Assembly: GCF_045037415.1 (NCBI RefSeq)
Contig: NZ_CP173438.1
Strand: one strand, 5' to 3'
Length of the DNA: 64,000 nt
From: Escherichia coli
GTDB taxonomy: Bacteria; Pseudomonadota; Gammaproteobacteria; Enterobacterales; Enterobacteriaceae
Part shown: positions 3,571 to 54,950 of the stretch, in pieces
How positions within the stretch are numbered: position 1 is the stretch's first letter
Layout: each line of letters opens with the position of its first letter
The notes under the pieces: model-generated
Database searches by the model: none
Told to the model about the DNA's origin: nothing
Seen by the model: only the letters and a program-made list of their open reading frames with translations
Translations under genes and position numbers: made by a program

Positions 3571-3987
3571 ATGACGCGTCTTGCAGAGATCCTCGACCAG
3601 ATGTCCGCTGTGCTTAACGATCTCAAAACGGTAATGGATCAAGAGCAGCAACATCTCTCTATGGGGCAGATCAACGGCAGCCAGTTGCAATGGATTACAG
3701 AACAAAAAAGCTCACTGCTGGCGACGCTGGATTACCTCGAACAGTTACGCAGGAAAGAACCCAATACAGCAAATAGCGTTGATATTAGTCAACGCTGGCA
3801 GGAAATTGCTGTGAAAACGCAGCAACTACGCCAAATGAATCAACATAACGGCTGGTTACTGGAAGGACAGATTGAGCGCAATCAACAGGCGCTGGAAATG
3901 TTGAAACCGCATCAGGAACCGACGCTGTATGGGGCGAACGGTCAGACCTCAACCCCCTATCGCGGCAGTAAAAAGATTTCGATCTGA
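3571..3987 (+). CDS. flgN: Flagellar export chaperone FlgN (138 aa)
   Basis: Protein MTRLAEILDQMSAVLNDLKTVMDQEQQHLS... is FlgN; ATG at 3571, 5 nt after the flgM stop. Confidence 0.95.
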   Translation: MTRLAEILDQMSAVLNDLKTVMDQEQQHLSMGQINGSQLQWITEQKSSLLATLDYLEQLRRKEPNTANSVDISQRWQEIAVKTQQLRQMNQHNGWLLEGQIERNQQALEMLKPHQEPTLYGANGQTSTPYRGSKKISI

Positions 3988-3996
3988 AGATTATCT

Positions 3997-4017
3997 CCGG
4001 CCTGCACTGCAGGCCGG
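3997..4017. terminator. Near-perfect palindrome between convergent flgN and murJ (candidate bidirectional terminator)
   Basis: ccggcctgcactgcaggccgg is a near-perfect inverted repeat between the flgN stop (3987) and murJ stop (4027); no strong T-run on either side, so function is inferred from position. Confidence 0.4.
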
Positions 4018-4026
4018 AATGTATCG

Positions 4027-5649
<1,623 letters not shown>

Positions 5650-32616: not shown

Positions 32617-33108
32617 TCACGCTTTATTTTTGATTTGCTGCTCACGGTGAGCGGTCTTCGTACTACGCGCCGCCAGCCACAGGCCGCTGTTTTTCATTGC
32701 GTAACCAAATACCAGTCCAAGCGCCAGCGAAGGTAACACCAGTTTCCAGTCCCCCTGCCCGGCAAACGTCGCGCATGCGCCTATAAACGTCCCCGGAACA
32801 AATGAAAGCAGCAGCTGTTTGGCCTGAATACACATCAGAAACGCGACAATACCGGTTATTACATAACCGAGAATTTCCAGATGTGGTGCCAGTGCACTAC
32901 CGTAAATAATGACCATCGCCCACACCACGCCACTAAGCAGGGTTGCAGCGGAGATCGCCAGCCCTTTCAGCCCACCTTGCGGGCAGGCAAAGTAGGCCGT
33001 ACAGCCCAGGAAGCCCGCCCAGCTTAGTAAGCCCAGGGAAACAGCCACCCATCCCCAGATACCGGAGAGAATGCCTGTTGTGATTGCAATAGAGAGAAGT
33101 ATGTTCAT
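32617..33108 (-). CDS. ycdZ: Inner membrane protein YcdZ (DUF1097), 163 aa
   Basis: Protein MNILLSIAITTGILSGIWGWVAVSLGLLSWAGFLGCTAYFA..., polytopic and hydrophobic; ATG at 33108. Confidence 0.88.
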   Translation of the reverse strand: MNILLSIAITTGILSGIWGWVAVSLGLLSWAGFLGCTAYFACPQGGLKGLAISAATLLSGVVWAMVIIYGSALAPHLEILGYVITGIVAFLMCIQAKQLLLSFVPGTFIGACATFAGQGDWKLVLPSLALGLVFGYAMKNSGLWLAARSTKTAHREQQIKNKA

Positions 33109-33209
33109 GCCGCGCATGATAGCAGAAAACGCGGCCATGAATGAGATCGAGCACACATTTTATGCAACAACAAATTATCAGTTGCAGTTATGAGTGATGC
33201 AGATCACAT

Positions 33210-33764
33210 TTACTCTTCAGAATCTTCTTCCAGCTCGTCCCACATTGCACTAATAGCATCGCGGGTTAGCGGTGCCATGGTGCGCCAGAAAGGCGTAGTT
33301 GCATGGGCCTCCACTTTGCCAAGGAACGCACCACACCAGGGTAACAGATACTCACTGAACAGTGTTTCCAGTGCTTCGCTCTCATCTTCCGTTGACTGAT
33401 CTTCCAGCCAGGAAGCCGCAAGCAGCAATGTGCCGATGTGATCGGCTGGCGTATCCGCTAGTGGCATCCCTCGTTCGGAAAGAAAAGCGCGCACTTCCGC
33501 TTCCGTTGCGCCCTCAACCCATGCGCTACGATATGGCGGCACAGCACATTCATCGCCGATAAACAACGCATTGTAATCGGCAGAGACTTGCGTCATATCA
33601 CAGCTTTTCTGTAAACGCGTCAGTAACTCATCCTGCTCCAGTGGCCAGTTCGCAGCCAGTTTCCCCTCACGAATCAGGGTAAACAACGGCACCAGTAAAG
33701 GATCTTGCGGTTGGCGGTAATAGAGCGAACCCAGCACACGACAGAGGATAGAAAACTCGTTCAT
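33210..33764 (-). CDS. ycdY: TorD-like chaperone YcdY (184 aa)
   Basis: Protein MNEFSILCRVLGSLYYRQPQDPLLVPLFTLIREGKLAANWPLEQ... is YcdY; ATG at 33764. Confidence 0.92.
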   Translation of the reverse strand: MNEFSILCRVLGSLYYRQPQDPLLVPLFTLIREGKLAANWPLEQDELLTRLQKSCDMTQVSADYNALFIGDECAVPPYRSAWVEGATEAEVRAFLSERGMPLADTPADHIGTLLLAASWLEDQSTEDESEALETLFSEYLLPWCGAFLGKVEAHATTPFWRTMAPLTRDAISAMWDELEEDSEE

Positions 33765-45544: not shown

Positions 45545-46816
45545 TTAAACCCGCAATAATGCGCTTCCGAGATAATCGTTCGCGTCCTTCACACCCGGCA
45601 GCGCAAAGAAATAGCCGCCACCGATAGGTTTGACATATTCCTCCAGCGCCTCGCCATTCAACCTTTTTTGTACTGTCAGGAAGCCCTTTTCCAGATCGTG
45701 TTGGTAGCAGACAAACAGTAGCCCCATATCGAGTTGCCCGGAATTGGTGACGCCCAACGAATAACTGTAGCCACGACGCAGCATCAGGCTGGACTCGCTC
45801 TCCGCCGTGCGGGGATTCGCCAGCCGGATATGGCTGTCCAGCGCAATCACCTTCCCTTCCGGATCGCTAGCGTAATCGGGAACATCATGCTCATGCTGCA
45901 TGCCCAGCGGCGCACCGGTTTGCTTATCACGACCAAATATCGTCTGCTGCTCTTTCAGCGGCGTTCTGTCCCAAAATTCCACTCGAAACTGAATCAAGCG
46001 TACTGCCTGATAGCTGCCACCGATTGTCCACGCAGGCTCCTGCTGATCTGCCGTCACCCACACCACTTTTTGCATCAACTTCGCATTCTGGCTATCGGGA
46101 TTGGCGGTGCCGTCTTTAAAGCCCAGCAAATTTATCGGCGTCTCTTTGCCTTTACTACGCGCTGCGTGGTCGGAAATAAACCCTTCCCGCTTCCAGCGCA
46201 CGCTGAGCAAATCCGGCGTGTGTTTGATGATATCGCGCAGCGCATGGATCACCGTGTCCTGGGTGTTGGCGCAAATTTGTAGCAACACATCACCATGACA
46301 TAACGCCGCATCCAGCGAGTCGTTGGGGAAACGCGTCATCTTCTGCAACTTTTTTGGCATCTGTGGCGCAAGGCCAAAGCGCTCATCAAACAATGAGTGA
46401 CCCACCGATAACGTGATGGTGAGATTATCGGGCGCAATGTAGCCGCCAAGAATGCCGGAATCGAGTGGTGGCAGGCGCGGATTTGGCGTTTCTGGTGCCG
46501 CTCCGCCCTGAGTCAGAAAAGCAAAACGCTGAGTCAACAAGCGAAACAACCGTTCAAGATCGGCTTTATCGCTGGCAAGCACATCAAACGCCACCAGCAT
46601 CATTGCAGCCTGTTGTGGTGTCAGGATCCCTGCCTGATGCTCACCATAAAACGGCTGTTTCTCATTGCGTGCATCCGGTGAAAGCGTACCCGGCGCACTT
46701 TGCGTTTTTTGTGCATGAGCAACCGGACAACTTCCCGCCAGCGCCAGCGCACCAATCCCTTTCAGTAAACGTCGGCGTGACGGTTCATTCACGCCGTTTT
46801 CATCTTCATACTGCAT
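45545..46816 (-). CDS. efeB: Tat-exported Dyp-type haem peroxidase EfeB (YcdB), 423 aa
   Basis: Protein [36 protein letters not shown]... has a twin-arginine signal (SRRRLLKG); ATG at 46816. Confidence 0.95.
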
Positions 46817-46821
46817 AACGC

Positions 46822-47949
46822 TTAGTCCAGCCCCAGCACACCACGAAGTTGCGCCAGATCTTCCGCCAGCGCAGTAATCGGTCCTTTCAGTGCGTTCCGG
46901 TCGGCATCGGTCAGTTTGTCGTAATTTTCAAAACCCTCTTTAGTGCGGTATTTCGCCAGAATGGTATCGACCTTTTTGAAGTTGGCATCGACTTTTGCCA
47001 ACAGTTCCGGATTCGCTTTTTGTAGTTGTGGACGCAGCAGATCGACAATTTTCTGCGAGCCTTCAACGTTAGCCTGGAAATCCCACAGATCGGTGTGGCT
47101 GTAGCGATCTTCTTCACCGCTGATTTTGCTGGCCGCCACTTCCTCAATCAGTCCGGCTGCACCGCCGACCACTTTTGAAGGAGGGAAAGCCAGTTCACTG
47201 ATGCGTTTTTGCAAATCGACCACATCGGTATAAAGCTGGTCAGCATACTTATCCATCCCTTTGGTGGTGTTATCGCCAAACAATGCTTTTTCCAGACGGT
47301 GGAAACCGGTGAATTTTGGATCGGCGGCTTTTTGCTCGTAATCATCTTCACGGGCGTCAATGCTGCCATCCAGATCGGAGAACAGTTCAGCAATCGGTTC
47401 GATGCGCTCATAGTGCTGCCGCGTCGGCGCATACAGTGCTTTCGCTTTTTCGATATCGCCTGCTTTAATAGCGTCGGTAAAGGCTTTGGTGTCGGTCACC
47501 AGTTGCGTGGTTTCCGCCATGACATACGCTTTATATGCAGTAATTGCACCACCAAGACTTAACAGCGCATCACTTTGCGCCGCATCCGCCGTTGCTTCAC
47601 CTTTGACGATCAACTTCCCTTTCGGGTTAGTCAGCAGACCGCAGGTCATATCGTATTCGCCAGGCTGTAAATTCGCCGTCATTTTCTGGCTAAAACCAGG
47701 GGCGATATTTTCCCGCTCTTCCACCACCATCACGCCTTTGAGGATCTCCCACTCCAGCGCCTTCTGGCTGTGGTTCTGAATAATGAACTGTGTTTTCCCG
47801 GCGTTAACCGTAATGGTCATCGGCTCGCACTGCTTATCTGTCACAGTGACTTTGACTTGCGGAATATCGGCGGCGTTAGCCATAAAAGCAGAAGAGAACA
47901 GCGCAGCCACGCTCAACTGCAATGCGTTACGACGGAAGTTAATGGTCAT
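46822..47949 (-). CDS. efeO: Periplasmic iron-uptake component EfeO (YcdO), 375 aa
   Basis: Protein [44 protein letters not shown]... is EfeO; ATG at 47949. Confidence 0.95.
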
Positions 47950-48006
47950 GACGAGACTATCCCTTTAAAGTATGTTGTAACTAAGCAAGAGTTTGCGTCG
48001 TATTTG

Positions 48007-48837
48007 CTACACGGAGCGGGACGCAGTCGCCCCTGCGCGTGGTGGCAGAACAAATGCCACCAGCGCCGGGATGAGATAAATAAACCAGACGGCGACTTCG
48101 CTGACGCTCGGTGCTTCCTGATAGCCAAAAATCCCTTCCATCAGTGTGCCAAACAGCGAGTGAGTTGAGAGCACCGCGCTCATATCGAAGGCGATTTCCT
48201 GAAAGTGGTTCCACAATCCGGCTTCATGAAATGCGCGAATGGCACCAGCTGCCAGCCCTGCGGCGACGAAGAGAATAAACAGACTGGTCCATTTAAAAAA
48301 TGCACCAAGATTGAGGCGAATACCGCCCCAGTAGAGCAGGAAGCCAAGCACCACGGCTGTAGCAAGACCGAGCATTGCACCCAGCGGCGGCCAGACCCCG
48401 ACATCTTGTTGAAATGCCGCCAGCAGGAAAAAGACCGACTCCAGCCCTTCCCTTGCAACGGCAAAAAAGACCATCATCACCAGCGCCCAGCCATGATGAT
48501 TTCCACGCTGCAATGCGCTATCGACCGCCTGCTCCAGTTGTACTTTGACGTTGCGCGACACTTTGCGCATCCAGAAAACCATCCAGGTAAGGATCACCAC
48601 GGCGATCACCGCCACAATGCCTTCAAACAGTTCCTGTTCTTTTTGCGGAAATTCGCCGGTGGTTTCGTTAATGAAGATACCCAAGCCCAGGCACAACGCA
48701 GCGGCAAGCAACACGCCAATCCACATTACACCAATCCATCGGCCTCGCTGGGTACGCTTAAGATAGCTGGCAATCAAACTGACAATCAGCGCGGCTTCAA
48801 GTCCTTCGCGCAACATAATGAGAAACGGAACAAACAT
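48007..48837 (-). CDS. efeU: Ferrous iron permease EfeU (Ftr1 family), 276 aa, intact reading frame
   Basis: Protein MFVPFLIMLREGLEAALIVSLIASYLKRTQRGRWIGVMW... with REGLE motifs; uninterrupted frame from ATG at 48837 to the stop at 48007. Confidence 0.92.
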   Translation of the reverse strand: MFVPFLIMLREGLEAALIVSLIASYLKRTQRGRWIGVMWIGVLLAAALCLGLGIFINETTGEFPQKEQELFEGIVAVIAVVILTWMVFWMRKVSRNVKVQLEQAVDSALQRGNHHGWALVMMVFFAVAREGLESVFFLLAAFQQDVGVWPPLGAMLGLATAVVLGFLLYWGGIRLNLGAFFKWTSLFILFVAAGLAAGAIRAFHEAGLWNHFQEIAFDMSAVLSTHSLFGTLMEGIFGYQEAPSVSEVAVWFIYLIPALVAFVLPPRAGATASRSV

Positions 48838-49056
48838 GCCACCCACCCTTAAACGTTTTTCTTAGTCAATCTATGCAAAGAAAAGTAAATCGCAGTGATA
48901 GCGATTATCATTACGATGAAGAAAAATACAAGTGAAATGTAGTGATAATGATGAGAAGATGTAAAAATATTTTGAGAAAAAACGCAGAGGGCAATCACTG
49001 ATTGCCCTCTGCCTGCTTCCTGTTATGACGTGAAATTTTCGGTAAAACGCCTTCCC

Positions 49057-50565
<1,509 letters not shown>

Positions 50566-50751
50566 CTAAAGTCTCCAAAAAATTATTATCGGCAATGTCG
50601 AAACTTGCCGTTATATCTGCCACCGGAACGGGGTAACAGAGTTTATGTTTTACCAGGGCGACCGTATCCTGCCGGAAGCGCTGGTTATTCACAATCGATT
50701 TAACACACCATTTACATTAAATTTTAGTGCTCAGCGACACTATTTTTCATC

Positions 50752-50961
50752 AGGTTGCACTCTCTCACATTTTTTGCGGTTGCACCTTTCAAAAATGTTA
50801 ACTGCCGCAGAGAAAAAGTCTGAGTTATTTTTTTAATCCCTGTCATATCGATTTCGTTTATTAACATTTCATTCATTTTTAAGCTTGCTACGCAGGTCAC
50901 ATTTAACATGGTTGCACAAAGTTGCAACATCATGGATATTTCACGATAACGTTAAGTTGCA
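50752..50961. promoter_or_regulatory. put control region: five GTTGCA PutA operator motifs between divergent putP and putA
   Basis: GTTGCA at 50752, 50779, 50911, 50921 and 50956; the 50921 copy is part of the palindrome gttgcaac. PutA autorepression through GTTGCA operators is established. Confidence 0.75.
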
Positions 50962-50987
50962 CCTTTCAGAACAACAGGAGTAATGGC

Positions 50988-53900
50988 ATGGGAACCACCA
51001 CCATGGGGGTTAAGCTGGACGACGCGACGCGTGAGCGTATTAAGTCTGCTGCGACACGTATCGATCGCACACCACACTGGTTAATTAAACAGGCGATTTT
51101 TTCTTATCTTGAACAACTGGAAAACAGCGATACTCTCCCGGAGCTACCTGCGCTGCTTTCTGGCGCGGCCAATGAGAGCGATGAAGCACCGACTCCGGCA
51201 GAGGAACCACACCAGCCTTTCCTCGACTTTGCCGAACAAATATTGCCCCAGTCGGTTTCCCGCGCCGCGATCACCGCGGCCTATCGCCGCCCGGAAACCG
51301 AAGCGGTTTCTATGCTGCTGGAACAAGCTCGCCTGCCGCAGCCAGTTGCTGAACAGGCGCACAAACTGGCGTATCAACTGGCCGATAAACTGCGTAATCA
51401 AAAAAACGCCAGTGGTCGCGCAGGTATGGTTCAGGGGTTATTGCAGGAGTTTTCGTTGTCATCGCAGGAAGGCGTGGCGCTGATGTGTCTGGCGGAAGCG
51501 TTGTTGCGTATTCCCGACAAAGCCACCCGTGACGCGTTAATTCGCGACAAAATCAGTAACGGTAACTGGCAGTCACACATTGGTCGTAGCCCGTCCCTGT
51601 TTGTTAATGCCGCTACCTGGGGGCTGCTGTTTACCGGCAAACTGGTTTCCACCCATAACGAAGCCAGCCTCTCCCGCTCGCTGAACCGCATTATCGGTAA
51701 GAGCGGTGAACCGCTGATCCGCAAAGGTGTGGATATGGCGATGCGCCTGATGGGCGAGCAGTTCGTCACGGGCGAAACCATCGCGGAAGCGTTAGCCAAT
51801 GCCCGCAAACTGGAAGAGAAAGGTTTCCGTTACTCTTACGATATGCTGGGCGAAGCCGCACTGACTGCCGCAGACGCACAGGCGTATATGGTTTCCTATC
51901 AGCAGGCGATTCACGCCATTGGTAAAGCGTCTAACGGTCGTGGCATCTATGAAGGTCCGGGCATTTCAATCAAGCTGTCGGCGCTACATCCGCGTTATAG
52001 CCGCGCCCAGTATGACCGGGTAATGGAAGAGCTTTACCCGCGTCTGAAATCACTCACCCTGCTGGCGCGTCAGTACGATATTGGTATTAACATCGATGCC
52101 GAAGAGGCCGATCGCCTGGAGATCTCCCTCGATCTGCTGGAAAAACTCTGTTTCGAGCCTGAACTGGCAGGCTGGAACGGCATCGGTTTTGTTATTCAGG
52201 CTTATCAAAAACGCTGCCCGTTGGTGATCGATTACCTGATTGATCTCGCCACCCGCAGCCGTCGCCGTCTGATGATTCGCCTGGTGAAAGGCGCGTACTG
52301 GGATAGTGAAATCAAGCGTGCACAGATGGACGGCCTTGAAGGTTATCCGGTTTATACCCGCAAGGTGTATACCGACGTTTCTTATCTTGCCTGTGCGAAA
52401 AAACTGCTGGCGGTGCCAAATCTAATCTACCCGCAGTTCGCGACGCACAACGCCCATACGCTGGCGGCAATTTATCAACTGGCGGGTCAAAACTACTACC
52501 CGGGTCAGTACGAGTTCCAGTGCCTGCATGGTATGGGCGAGCCACTGTATGAGCAGGTCACCGGGAAAGTTGCCGACGGCAAACTTAACCGTCCGTGTCG
52601 TATTTATGCTCCGGTCGGTACACATGAAACGCTGCTGGCATATCTGGTGCGCCGCCTGCTGGAAAACGGTGCTAACACCTCGTTTGTTAACCGTATTGCC
52701 GACACCTCTTTGCCACTGGATGAACTGGTCGCCGATCCAGTCACTGCTGTAGAAAAACTGGCGCAACAGGAAGGGCAAACTGGATTACCGCATCCGAAAA
52801 TTCCCCTGCCGCGCGATCTTTACGGTCACGGGCGCGACAACTCGGCAGGGCTGGATCTCGCTAACGAACACCGTCTGGCCTCGCTCTCTTCAGCCCTGCT
52901 CAATAGTGCACTGCAAAAATGGCAGTCCTTGCCAATGCTGGAACAACCGGTAGCGGCAGGTGAGATGTCGCCCGTTATTAACCCTGCGGAACCGAAAGAT
53001 ATTGTGGGCTATGTGCGTGAAGCCACGCCGCGTGAAGTAGAACAGGCGCTGGAAAGTGCGGTTAATAACGCGCCAATCTGGTTTGCCACTCCTCCGGCTG
53101 AACGCGCGGCAATTTTGCATCGCGCTGCCGTGCTAATGGAAAGCCAGATGCAGCAACTGATTGGTATTCTGGTGCGTGAAGCCGGAAAAACCTTCAGTAA
53201 CGCCATTGCCGAAGTGCGCGAAGCGGTCGATTTTCTCCACTACTATGCCGGACAGGTGCGGGATGATTTCGCTAACGAAACCCACCGTCCATTAGGGCCT
53301 GTGGTATGTATCAGTCCGTGGAACTTCCCGCTGGCTATTTTCACCGGACAGATCGCTGCCGCACTGGCGGCAGGTAACAGCGTGCTGGCAAAACCGGCAG
53401 AACAAACGCCGCTGATTGCCGCGCAAGGGATCGCCATTTTGCTGGAAGCGGGTGTACCGCCAGGCGTGGTGCAATTGCTGCCAGGTCGGGGTGAAACCGT
53501 GGGCGCGCAACTGACGGGTGATGATCGCGTGCGCGGGGTGATGTTTACCGGTTCAACCGAAGTCGCTACGTTACTGCAGCGCAATATCGCCAGCCGCCTG
53601 GACGCTCAGGGTCGCCCTATTCCGCTCATCGCTGAAACCGGCGGCATGAACGCGATGATTGTCGATTCTTCAGCACTGACCGAACAAGTCGTAATAGATG
53701 TGCTGGCCTCGGCGTTCGACAGTGCAGGTCAGCGTTGTTCGGCACTGCGCGTGCTGTGCCTGCAAGATGAGATTGCCGACCACACGCTGAAAATGCTGCG
53801 CGGCGCAATGGCCGAATGCCGGATGGGTAATCCGGGTCGCCTGACCACCGATATCGGTCCGGTGATTGATAGCGAAGCGAAAGCCAATATCGAGCGTCAT

Positions 53901-54950
53901 ATTCAGACCATGCGTAGTAAAGGCCGTCAGGTGTTCCAGGCGGTGCGGGAAAACAGCGAAGATGCCCGTGAATGGCAAAGCGGCACCTTTGTCGCTCCGA
54001 CGCTGATCGAACTGGATGACTTTGCCGAATTACAAAAAGAGGTCTTTGGTCCGGTGTTGCATGTGGTGCGTTACAACCGTAACCAGCTCCCAGAGCTGAT
54101 CGAGCAGATTAACGCTTCCGGTTATGGTCTGACGCTTGGCGTCCATACGCGCATTGATGAAACCATCGCCCAGGTCACTGGCTCGGCGCATGTCGGTAAT
54201 CTGTACGTTAACCGTAATATGGTGGGCGCAGTGGTTGGGGTGCAACCGTTCGGCGGCGAAGGATTGTCCGGCACCGGGCCGAAAGCAGGCGGTCCGCTCT
54301 ATCTCTACCGTCTGCTGGCGAATCGCCCGGAAAGTGCGCTGGCGGTGACGCTCGCGCGTCAGGATGCGGAGTATCCGGTCGATGCGCAGTTGAAAGCCGC
54401 ATTGACTCAGCCGCTAAATGCACTGCGGGAATGGGCGGCAAACCGTCCAGAATTGCAGGCGTTATGTACGCAATATGGCGAGTTGGCGCAGGCAGGAACA
54501 CAACGATTGTTGCCAGGGCCGACGGGTGAACGCAACACCTGGACGCTGCTGCCGCGTGAGCGCGTGTTGTGTATTGCGGATGATGAACAGGATGCGCTGA
54601 CTCAGCTCGCCGCCGTGCTGGCGGTGGGTAGCCAGGTGCTGTGGCCGGATAATGCGCTGCATCGTCAGTTAGTGAAGGCATTGCCATCGGCAGTCAGCGA
54701 ACGTATTCAACTGGCGAAAGCGGAAAATATAACCGCTCAACCATTTGATGCGGTGATCTTCCACGGTGATTCGGATCAGCTTCGCGCATTGTGTGAAGCC
54801 GTTGCCGCGCGGGATGGTGCAATTGTTTCGGTGCAGGGTTTTGCCCGTGGCGAAAGCAATATCCTTCTGGAACGGCTGTATATCGAGCGTTCGCTGAGTG
54901 TGAATACCGCTGCCGCTGGCGGTAACGCCAGTTTAATGACGATCGGTTAA
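50988..54950 (+). CDS. putA: Bifunctional proline dehydrogenase / P5C dehydrogenase and transcriptional repressor PutA (1320 aa)
   Basis: Protein MGTTTMGVKLDDATRERIKSAATRIDRTPHWLIKQAIFSYLEQLE... (N-terminal ribbon-helix-helix DNA-binding domain) through to an aldehyde dehydrogenase domain; ATG at 50988. Confidence 0.95.
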   Translation: MGTTTMGVKLDDATRERIKSAATRIDRTPHWLIKQAIFSYLEQLENSDTLPELPALLSGAANESDEAPTPAEEPHQPFLDFAEQILPQSVSRAAITAAYRRPETEAVSMLLEQARLPQPVAEQAHKLAYQLADKLRNQKNASGRAGMVQGLLQEFSLSSQEGVALMCLAEALLRIPDKATRDALIRDKISNGNWQSHIGRSPSLFVNAATWGLLFTGKLVSTHNEASLSRSLNRIIGKSGEPLIRKGVDMAMRLMGEQFVTGETIAEALANARKLEEKGFRYSYDMLGEAALTAADAQAYMVSYQQAIHAIGKASNGRGIYEGPGISIKLSALHPRYSRAQYDRVMEELYPRLKSLTLLARQYDIGINIDAEEADRLEISLDLLEKLCFEPELAGWNGIGFVIQAYQKRCPLVIDYLIDLATRSRRRLMIRLVKGAYWDSEIKRAQMDGLEGYPVYTRKVYTDVSYLACAKKLLAVPNLIYPQFATHNAHTLAAIYQLAGQNYYPGQYEFQCLHGMGEPLYEQVTGKVADGKLNRPCRIYAPVGTHETLLAYLVRRLLENGANTSFVNRIADTSLPLDELVADPVTAVEKLAQQEGQTGLPHPKIPLPRDLYGHGRDNSAGLDLANEHRLASLSSALLNSALQKWQSLPMLEQPVAAGEMSPVINPAEPKDIVGYVREATPREVEQALESAVNNAPIWFATPPAERAAILHRAAVLMESQMQQLIGILVREAGKTFSNAIAEVREAVDFLHYYAGQVRDDFANETHRPLGPVVCISPWNFPLAIFTGQIAAALAAGNSVLAKPAEQTPLIAAQGIAILLEAGVPPGVVQLLPGRGETVGAQLTGDDRVRGVMFTGSTEVATLLQRNIASRLDAQGRPIPLIAETGGMNAMIVDSSALTEQVVIDVLASAFDSAGQRCSALRVLCLQDEIADHTLKMLRGAMAECRMGNPGRLTTDIGPVIDSEAKANIERHIQTMRSKGRQVFQAVRENSEDAREWQSGTFVAPTLIELDDFAELQKEVFGPVLHVVRYNRNQLPELIEQINASGYGLTLGVHTRIDETIAQVTGSAHVGNLYVNRNMVGAVVGVQPFGGEGLSGTGPKAGGPLYLYRLLANRPESALAVTLARQDAEYPVDAQLKAALTQPLNALREWAANRPELQALCTQYGELAQAGTQRLLPGPTGERNTWTLLPRERVLCIADDEQDALTQLAAVLAVGSQVLWPDNALHRQLVKALPSAVSERIQLAKAENITAQPFDAVIFHGDSDQLRALCEAVAARDGAIVSVQGFARGESNILLERLYIERSLSVNTAAAGGNASLMTIG

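Follow-up and report, generated by a model that had tools for sequence, protein, structure and literature searches.

The spacer between the putP and putA genes in the Escherichia coli DNA considered here (the window, i.e., the whole 64-kb stretch that was analysed) carries the hexamer GTTGCA five times, and the locus raises the question whether these copies are operators of the PutA protein or whether promoter elements, chance, or another regulator account for them. The five hexamers can be identified with high confidence as the PutA operators of the E. coli put control region, and this operator array is real but ordinary, since it is already known, published, and structurally characterised.

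PutA binds operators located between putA and putP and represses both genes at low proline (PMC5879082, PMC8249747), and when proline is present the protein moves to the membrane (PMC5879082, PMC8249747, PMC5293562). In genomic SELEX PutA selected no target in the K-12 genome other than the putA/putP spacer (PMC8249747), and gel shifts with put control DNA of 420 bp gave a Kd of about 45-58 nM for PutA (PMC5293562). The recognition sequence for the PutA structure 2rbf is tabulated as cGGTTGCACc (PMC4655474).

The put Locus and Its Five Hexamers

Both flanking genes were assigned by NCBIfam equivalogs with scores far above the curated cutoffs: the putP product matches NF011948 with E=0 and 1140 bits (cutoff 955), and the putA product matches NF008772, which stands for the combination of transcriptional regulator, proline dehydrogenase, and glutamate-semialdehyde dehydrogenase. 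In RefSeq, DNA identical to this region is annotated accordingly, with putP named and the putP/putA layout divergent. The intergenic region between the putP ATG at 50565 (minus strand) and the putA ATG at 50988 has a length of 422 bp and a G+C content of 38.8%. The features of the locus are as follows.

49057-50565, minus strand: putP, sodium/proline symporter (open reading frame and NF011948 equivalog)
50566-50987: put control DNA, the putP/putA divergent intergenic region, which holds all five operators and both promoters
50988-54950, plus strand: trifunctional putA, whose product reads the operators (NF008772 equivalog, full length, 2660 bits)
50753-50760, plus strand: operator 1, exact 8-mer GGTTGCAC, hexamer 50754-50759, closest to putP
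50778-50785, plus strand: operator 2, exact 8-mer GGTTGCAC(C), hexamer 50779-50784
50910-50917, plus strand: operator 3, exact 8-mer GGTTGCAC, hexamer 50911-50916
50920-50929, both strands match: operator 4, AGTTGCAAC, hexamer 50921-50926, contains the palindrome GTTGCAAC
50955-50962, plus strand: operator 5, AGTTGCAC, hexamer 50956-50961

The plus-strand hexamers were located by exact search of the 64-kb window, and all five have the same orientation, that of the putA sense direction, with 25, 132, 10, and 35 bp between successive hexamer starts. Four of the start coordinates proposed in the earlier note (50779, 50911, 50921, and 50956) are exact, while the fifth, 50752, was two bases early: position 50752 is the A of AGGTTGCA, and the hexamer itself starts at 50754. 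The array from 50754 to 50961 spans 208 bp, in agreement with the spread of about 210 bp that had been described. The copy at 50921 had also been described as palindromic, and it is: positions 50921-50928 form the perfect 8-bp palindrome GTTGCAAC, which is matched on both strands and explains the single minus-strand GTTGCA found within the array (50923-50928).

The flanks of the hexamers are not uniform. Operators 1-3 match exactly the crystallographic contact sequence (c)GGTTGCAC(c), whereas operator 5 (AGTTGCAC) has one mismatch to GGTTGCAC and operator 4 (AGTTGCAA) has two. The context of operator 2 reads cGGTTGCACc, the same as the sequence tabulated for the PutA-DNA structure 2rbf. Operators 2 and 5 also have in common the exact 13-mer GTTGCACCTTTCA (50779-50791 and 50956-50968).

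Pairwise alignment with K-12 MG1655 (NC_000913.3) revealed three SNPs in the intergenic DNA (50856 G/T, 50895 G/T, and 50968 A/T) and no indels. None of the SNPs falls inside a hexamer, the one at 50968 being 7 nt beyond the 3' end of the hexamer in operator 5, and therefore the motif positions are exactly those of the K-12 put control DNA, the comparison that the earlier note had proposed. By this alignment the hexamers of operators 1-5 correspond to 1079116-1079111, 1079091-1079086, 1078959-1078954, 1078949-1078944, and 1078914-1078909 of NC_000913.3, read on the complement strand. The intergenic DNA is 100% identical in many E. coli genomes, and at least 80% of the region is found in 5,412 of 5,426 complete genomes. 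The protein side is equally close to the reference, as residues 1-52 of the PutA encoded in the window are identical to the crystallised ribbon-helix-helix domain, represented in the PDB by 2gpe (domain alone) and 2rbf (domain on operator DNA).

PDB 2rbf is taken here to be PutA52 bound to operator 2. According to Zhou et al. 2008, five operators were reportedly mapped, each with GTTGCA; putA repression is said to depend critically on three of them and putP repression on two. PutA is said to contact a 9-bp segment made of the hexamer and three flanking base pairs, and the flanks of operator 4 placed in operator 2 reportedly cut the affinity about 15-fold. The array seen here, with two hexamers towards putP, three towards putA, and flanks that deviate in operators 4 and 5, fits this account.

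Several other features of the neighbourhood were recorded. In the E. coli genome search seven matches to the put control region were located on plasmids and not on chromosomes, and a few genomes contained two copies. The efeUOB iron-uptake genes (45545-48846) adjoin putP, and the 279-amino-acid open reading frame at 48007-48846, which occupies the position of efeU in the annotation of the identical region, looks intact, whereas efeU in K-12 carries a frameshift. In strain SK1144 an IS1A element lies between efeU and putP (positions 3776-4473 of locus L001), and the window is without it.

Conservation of the Operators in Enterobacteriaceae

The comparative set included 80 loci, one genome per species, which were found with the first 200 residues of PutA and from which 79 distinct putP/putA intergenic regions were extracted and aligned. 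In these regions identity amounts to 99.8-100% for the hexamers of operators 1-4, against a mean column identity of 66% to the window (n=79), and among the 417 six-base windows of the alignment 30 are conserved at 98% or more in every column, 24 of which lie on operators 1-4 and their immediate flanks. The operator 1 block AGGTTGCACT and the operator 4 sequence GTTGCAACAT are identical in 79 of 79 Enterobacteriaceae sequences, conservation of the operator 2 hexamer is 100%, and that of operator 3 is 99.8%, the sole exception being E. whittamii with GTTGCG. The same substitution is the only one that interrupts the block GGTTGCACAAAGTTGCAACAT, otherwise invariant in the 79 regions. Spacing is preserved as well, with 25 bp between operators 1 and 2 in 78 of the 79 regions and 10 bp between operators 3 and 4 in all of them.

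In relatives with trifunctional PutA operators 1-4 are thus conserved, but operator 5 is not, its column identity over the 79 sequences being 31%. Among the 79 regions this site is carried by the window and by the loci L004-L008, which represent E. coli, further Escherichia species, and E. whittamii, and it is absent in E. albertii, Salmonella, Citrobacter, Klebsiella, Enterobacter, and other genera. Within E. coli it is nearly fixed, since the surrounding 32-mer is found exactly in 5,372 of 5,426 complete genomes. As judged from this alignment, the fifth operator (50956) is lineage-specific, a leader-proximal site at -32 that belongs to the E. coli clade only. It lies 15 nt upstream of the putA Shine-Dalgarno sequence AGGAG (50976-50980), in the putative putA 5' leader. 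Due to the lack of conservation beyond the E. coli clade, the status of operator 5 as an operator depends on experimental work and not on the sequence. At the place homologous to the operator 5 flank E. albertii has ACCTTT with the hexamer absent, and therefore the flank shared by operators 2 and 5 predates the operator 5 hexamer or is independent of it.

Outside the operators just three fully conserved blocks were observed, one of which is CCGGAACG (50623-50630) in the putP 5' leader, conserved at about 99% over 79 species. The sequence TTAACA or its complement TGTTAA occurs four times (50699-50705, 50796-50802, 50861-50866, and 50903-50908), each copy being highly conserved over Enterobacteriaceae; the first falls on the putP start site P1, and for the remaining three the candidate roles are -35-like elements or a site of another factor.

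The putP Side of the Control Region

For conversion of the published start sites to the window, position 1078528 of U00096.2 was assumed to be the putP ATG. Transcription of putP was reported to start 137 (P1, -136/-137), 94-95, and 13-17 nt upstream of the ATG (PMC2760140), and Cappable-seq placed putP starts on the plus strand of U00096.2 at 1078392, 1078434 (score 43.9, the strongest), 1078448, and 1078518 (PMC4782308). The converted coordinates, which reproduce the putP offsets of PMC2760140, are given below.

50701, minus strand: putP start site P1
50659, minus strand: putP start site at -94, the strongest
50645 and 50575, minus strand: weaker putP start sites

Operators 1 and 2 are centred approximately 55 and 80 bp upstream of P1 (50701) and lie about 97-122 bp upstream of the strongest start site (50659), and they cover no putP -10 or -35 element. 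Being located so far upstream of the putP starts, they fail to explain putP repression by simple occlusion of the -10 and -35 elements.

A weak CRP-like site, TGTGAGAGAGTGCAAC, was noticed on the minus strand at 50769-50754, with 3 mismatches in the 10 specified bases; operator 1 forms the right half of the site, the GTGA core is conserved, and the site is centred about 60.5 bp upstream of P1. Should it prove genuine, PutA on operators 1 and 2 would repress putP by blocking the access of an activator and not by occluding the core promoter, and competition of PutA with an activator is thus a possible putP mechanism suggested by the layout of the region. The broader reading, in which an invariant core of four sites is accompanied by a fifth site that was turned over between lineages and in which operator 1 overlaps the weak CRP-like site, is offered tentatively and, taken as a whole, appears rather doubtful.

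A better CRP-like site, TGCTACGCAGGTCACA, is present at 50886-50901 just upstream of operator 3, with 2 mismatches to TGTGA-N6-TCACA and a conserved GGTCACA half. In Salmonella arizonae/diarizonae, E. albertii, and Kluyvera the left half of this site reads TTGCAAC, which produces an extra minus-strand GTTGCA. The IHF consensus WATCAANNNNTTR was not found in the intergenic region at up to 1 mismatch, and its single match, within the putP coding sequence, is at chance level.

Two short reading frames have been annotated on the minus strand of this region. The small open reading frame ymdG of K-12 (b4737, 8 codons, MKNSVAEH) corresponds to 50724-50750, its ATG being 4 nt from operator 1 and upstream of every mapped putP start (50701 and below); this stretch is poorly conserved beyond Escherichia. 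A 69-amino-acid hypothetical protein, WP_000979522.1, was annotated by RefSeq/PGAP in strain SK1144 at about 50724-50933, and since operators 1-4 and the AT-rich, poorly conserved middle of the region all lie within it, it is probably a spurious call.

The putA Side of the Control Region

On the putA side a promoter can be proposed from the sequence and its conservation, with the following putative elements.

50912-50917, plus strand: putative putA -35 element TTGCAC, within operator 3 (from sequence and conservation)
50935-50940, plus strand: putative putA -10 element GATATT, 17 bp downstream of TTGCAC (read from the sequence)

GATATT is conserved at 99.4% over 79 sequences, and the spacing of the two elements would imply a putA start site near 50947. 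In this arrangement the putA -35 element is probably covered by operator 3 and the spacer by operator 4, and the predicted putA transcript would contain operator 5 at about +10. A putA start site is absent from the supplements of PMC2760140, and there is none near the expected position among the Cappable-seq entries listed in PMC4782308. A generic sigma-70 scan returned one weak minus-strand candidate and nothing for putA, which is missed because TTGCAC scores 3/6.

These elements suggest the explanation that operators 3 and 4 are conserved as parts of a promoter, with TTGCAC as -35 or CAACAT as -10, and that the repeated hexamer is a by-product. With TTAACA/CAACAT as the putA promoter, transcription would begin near 50937 and the -10 element would fall on operator 4. 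The 17-bp distance from TTGCAC to the 99%-conserved GATATT, the presence of TTAACA (50903-50908) 16 bp upstream of CAACAT, and the conservation itself, which is expected of promoter elements, speak for it; but operators 1 and 2 are equally invariant although they are upstream of all mapped putP starts and in no -10 or -35 element, and the recurrence of the same 8-mer would be left unexplained. Moreover, the overlap of operator and promoter is normal for repressors, so this explanation is an addition to PutA binding rather than an alternative, and as the full account of the repeats it is very improbable.

Local Enrichment and the Choice of Regulator

The enrichment of the hexamer was estimated with 20,000 dinucleotide-preserving shuffles of the 422-bp intergenic region (50566-50987). 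The shuffles contained on average 0.20 plus-strand copies of GTTGCA, and none of the 20,000 reached 5; on both strands the mean was 0.39 and the largest number 5, so the observed 6 was again reached in 0 of 20,000. The comparison with a shuffled background, suggested in the earlier note, thereby bears out the local excess, and the possibility raised there that the motif count lies within chance expectation is rejected. In the intergenic region GTTGCA is the commonest hexamer, tied with AAAAAT, while over the 64 kb 53 copies were observed against 56.6 expected from shuffles, i.e., without enrichment, and the put signal is therefore a local cluster. The 8-mer GGTTGCAC occurs exactly 5 times in 64 kb, 3 of them in the put region (50753, 50778, and 50910).

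That the cluster is a functionless chance product of an AT-rich intergenic region can hardly be maintained against these numbers. This view could appeal to the absence of window-wide enrichment, to the stretch 32942-33303, which also holds four copies with no obvious meaning, and to the single extra copies in other genera, which occur at about the chance rate; but no shuffle attained the observed counts, the five copies are co-oriented and three of them carry the full 8-mer, and operators 1-4 with their spacings are near-invariant in 79 regions on a background identity of 66%. For operators 1-4 chance is excluded by the shuffle and conservation tests, and for the cluster as a whole its probability is negligible.

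The stretch 32942-33303 is the sole other 423-bp stretch of the window with four GTTGCA (32942 plus, 33163 minus, 33181 plus, and 33298 plus); it was considered as a meaningful array and rejected, as it lies mostly within two minus-strand open reading frames and has unrelated flanks, and it is treated as chance. The extra hexamers in other genera include a minus-strand copy at about -102 in Salmonella arizonae and diarizonae, E. albertii, and Kluyvera, a minus-strand copy at -42 in Pluralibacter-like genomes, and a plus-strand copy at about -103 in Enterobacter mori and Pseudocitrobacter. By hand count there are about 26 of them over 79 regions against 0.39 expected per region; with a total so near the chance rate they were not called as further operators, and for the same reason a fifth site cannot be certified from the sequence alone.

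Another regulator for which the hexamer could be a target is CytR. The CytR site in RegulonDB consists of two GTTGCATT octamers, direct or inverted and preferably 2 bp apart (PMC3013702). The explanation of the five copies as CytR sites, with the pair of GTTGCATT octamers as the optimal site, is exceedingly unlikely and was rejected on flanks and spacing: the first six bases of GTTGCATT are indeed GTTGCA, but the TT extension is present in none of the five copies (GTTGCAct, GTTGCAcc, GTTGCAca, GTTGCAac, and GTTGCAcc), the spacings of 25, 132, 10, and 35 bp include no pair about 2 bp apart, the conserved flanks GG (5') and C (3') are the PutA contact pattern, and the adjoining gene encodes a regulator that recognises a GTTGCA sequence.

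PutA Repression and the Operator Array

The identification of the hexamers as PutA operators is based on what was established directly on this DNA, namely, the motif positions and their enrichment, the identity to K-12, the identity of the DNA-binding domain, and the conservation of four sites with their spacing. The earlier proposal that PutA represses its own gene through GTTGCA is well supported by the K-12-identical sites, the domain identical to that in 2rbf, the recognition sequence, the SELEX result, and the conservation. For PutA binding, repression, and the redox switch we rely on the literature, and the overlap of each operator with promoter elements is what we infer from their positions.

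Taken together, the following course of regulation may be proposed. When proline is scarce, PutA would stay in the cytoplasm, where its N-terminal ribbon-helix-helix dimer would insert a two-stranded beta-sheet into the major groove at GTTGCA and its flanks, with GGTTGCAC as the optimal sequence. Operators 3 and 4, one helical turn apart, would be occupied on the putative putA -35 element and spacer, and operator 5 in the early transcribed leader, so that operators 3-5 would jointly shut off putA, and operators 1 and 2, nearest to putP, would contribute to putP repression. Proline would reduce the PutA flavin and direct the protein to the membrane, leaving the operators empty and allowing transcription of both putA and putP.

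As a discovery the array matters little, because it belongs to a textbook autoregulatory circuit of the best-studied bacterium, with sites mapped and crystallised in 2008. The additions made here are modest and comprise the numbers on conservation, the restriction of operator 5 to one lineage, and the location of operators 1 and 2, which lie upstream of the putP promoters that have been mapped. The locus is useful as a positive control, and it indicates that a genuine operator array can be recovered by reading the bare sequence and is cleanly confirmed when a local shuffle test is combined with a phylogenetic footprint. For the research of PutA and of regulatory evolution the interest consists in the quantified footprint, with its rigid 25-bp and 10-bp spacing over 79 species, and in the lineage-specific fifth operator.

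Comparison with Known Systems

The closest known system is the put control DNA of K-12, where this very locus carries the five hexamers at unchanged positions, together with an identical ribbon-helix-helix domain and the recognition sequence cGGTTGCACc as operator 2; it differs from the window solely by the three strain-level intergenic SNPs. The put regions of Salmonella, Citrobacter, Klebsiella, Enterobacter, Kluyvera, and other Enterobacteriaceae have the same divergent layout, operators 1-4, spacings, and GATATT, but are without the E. coli operator 5, and some of them possess a different extra hexamer. The CytR operators share GTTGCA only, since the flanks, the spacing, and the TT extension do not fit, and CytR is a regulator of the LacI/GalR family.

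In its fold PutA is related to Arc, MetJ, CopG, NikR, and the antitoxins ParD/CopA, in which the beta-sheet of the dimer is likewise placed in the major groove, and the PDB matches of PutA to CopG-family regulators have E of about 1e-4. Most other ribbon-helix-helix repressors recognise inverted repeats that are bound as dimers of dimers, whereas each short PutA site appears to be occupied by one dimer alone (PMC2777438), the sites being direct repeats in a dispersed arrangement. PutA also differs from the other ribbon-helix-helix repressors in being fused to two enzymes, and its switch is the reduction of flavin together with membrane binding and not a small-molecule corepressor.
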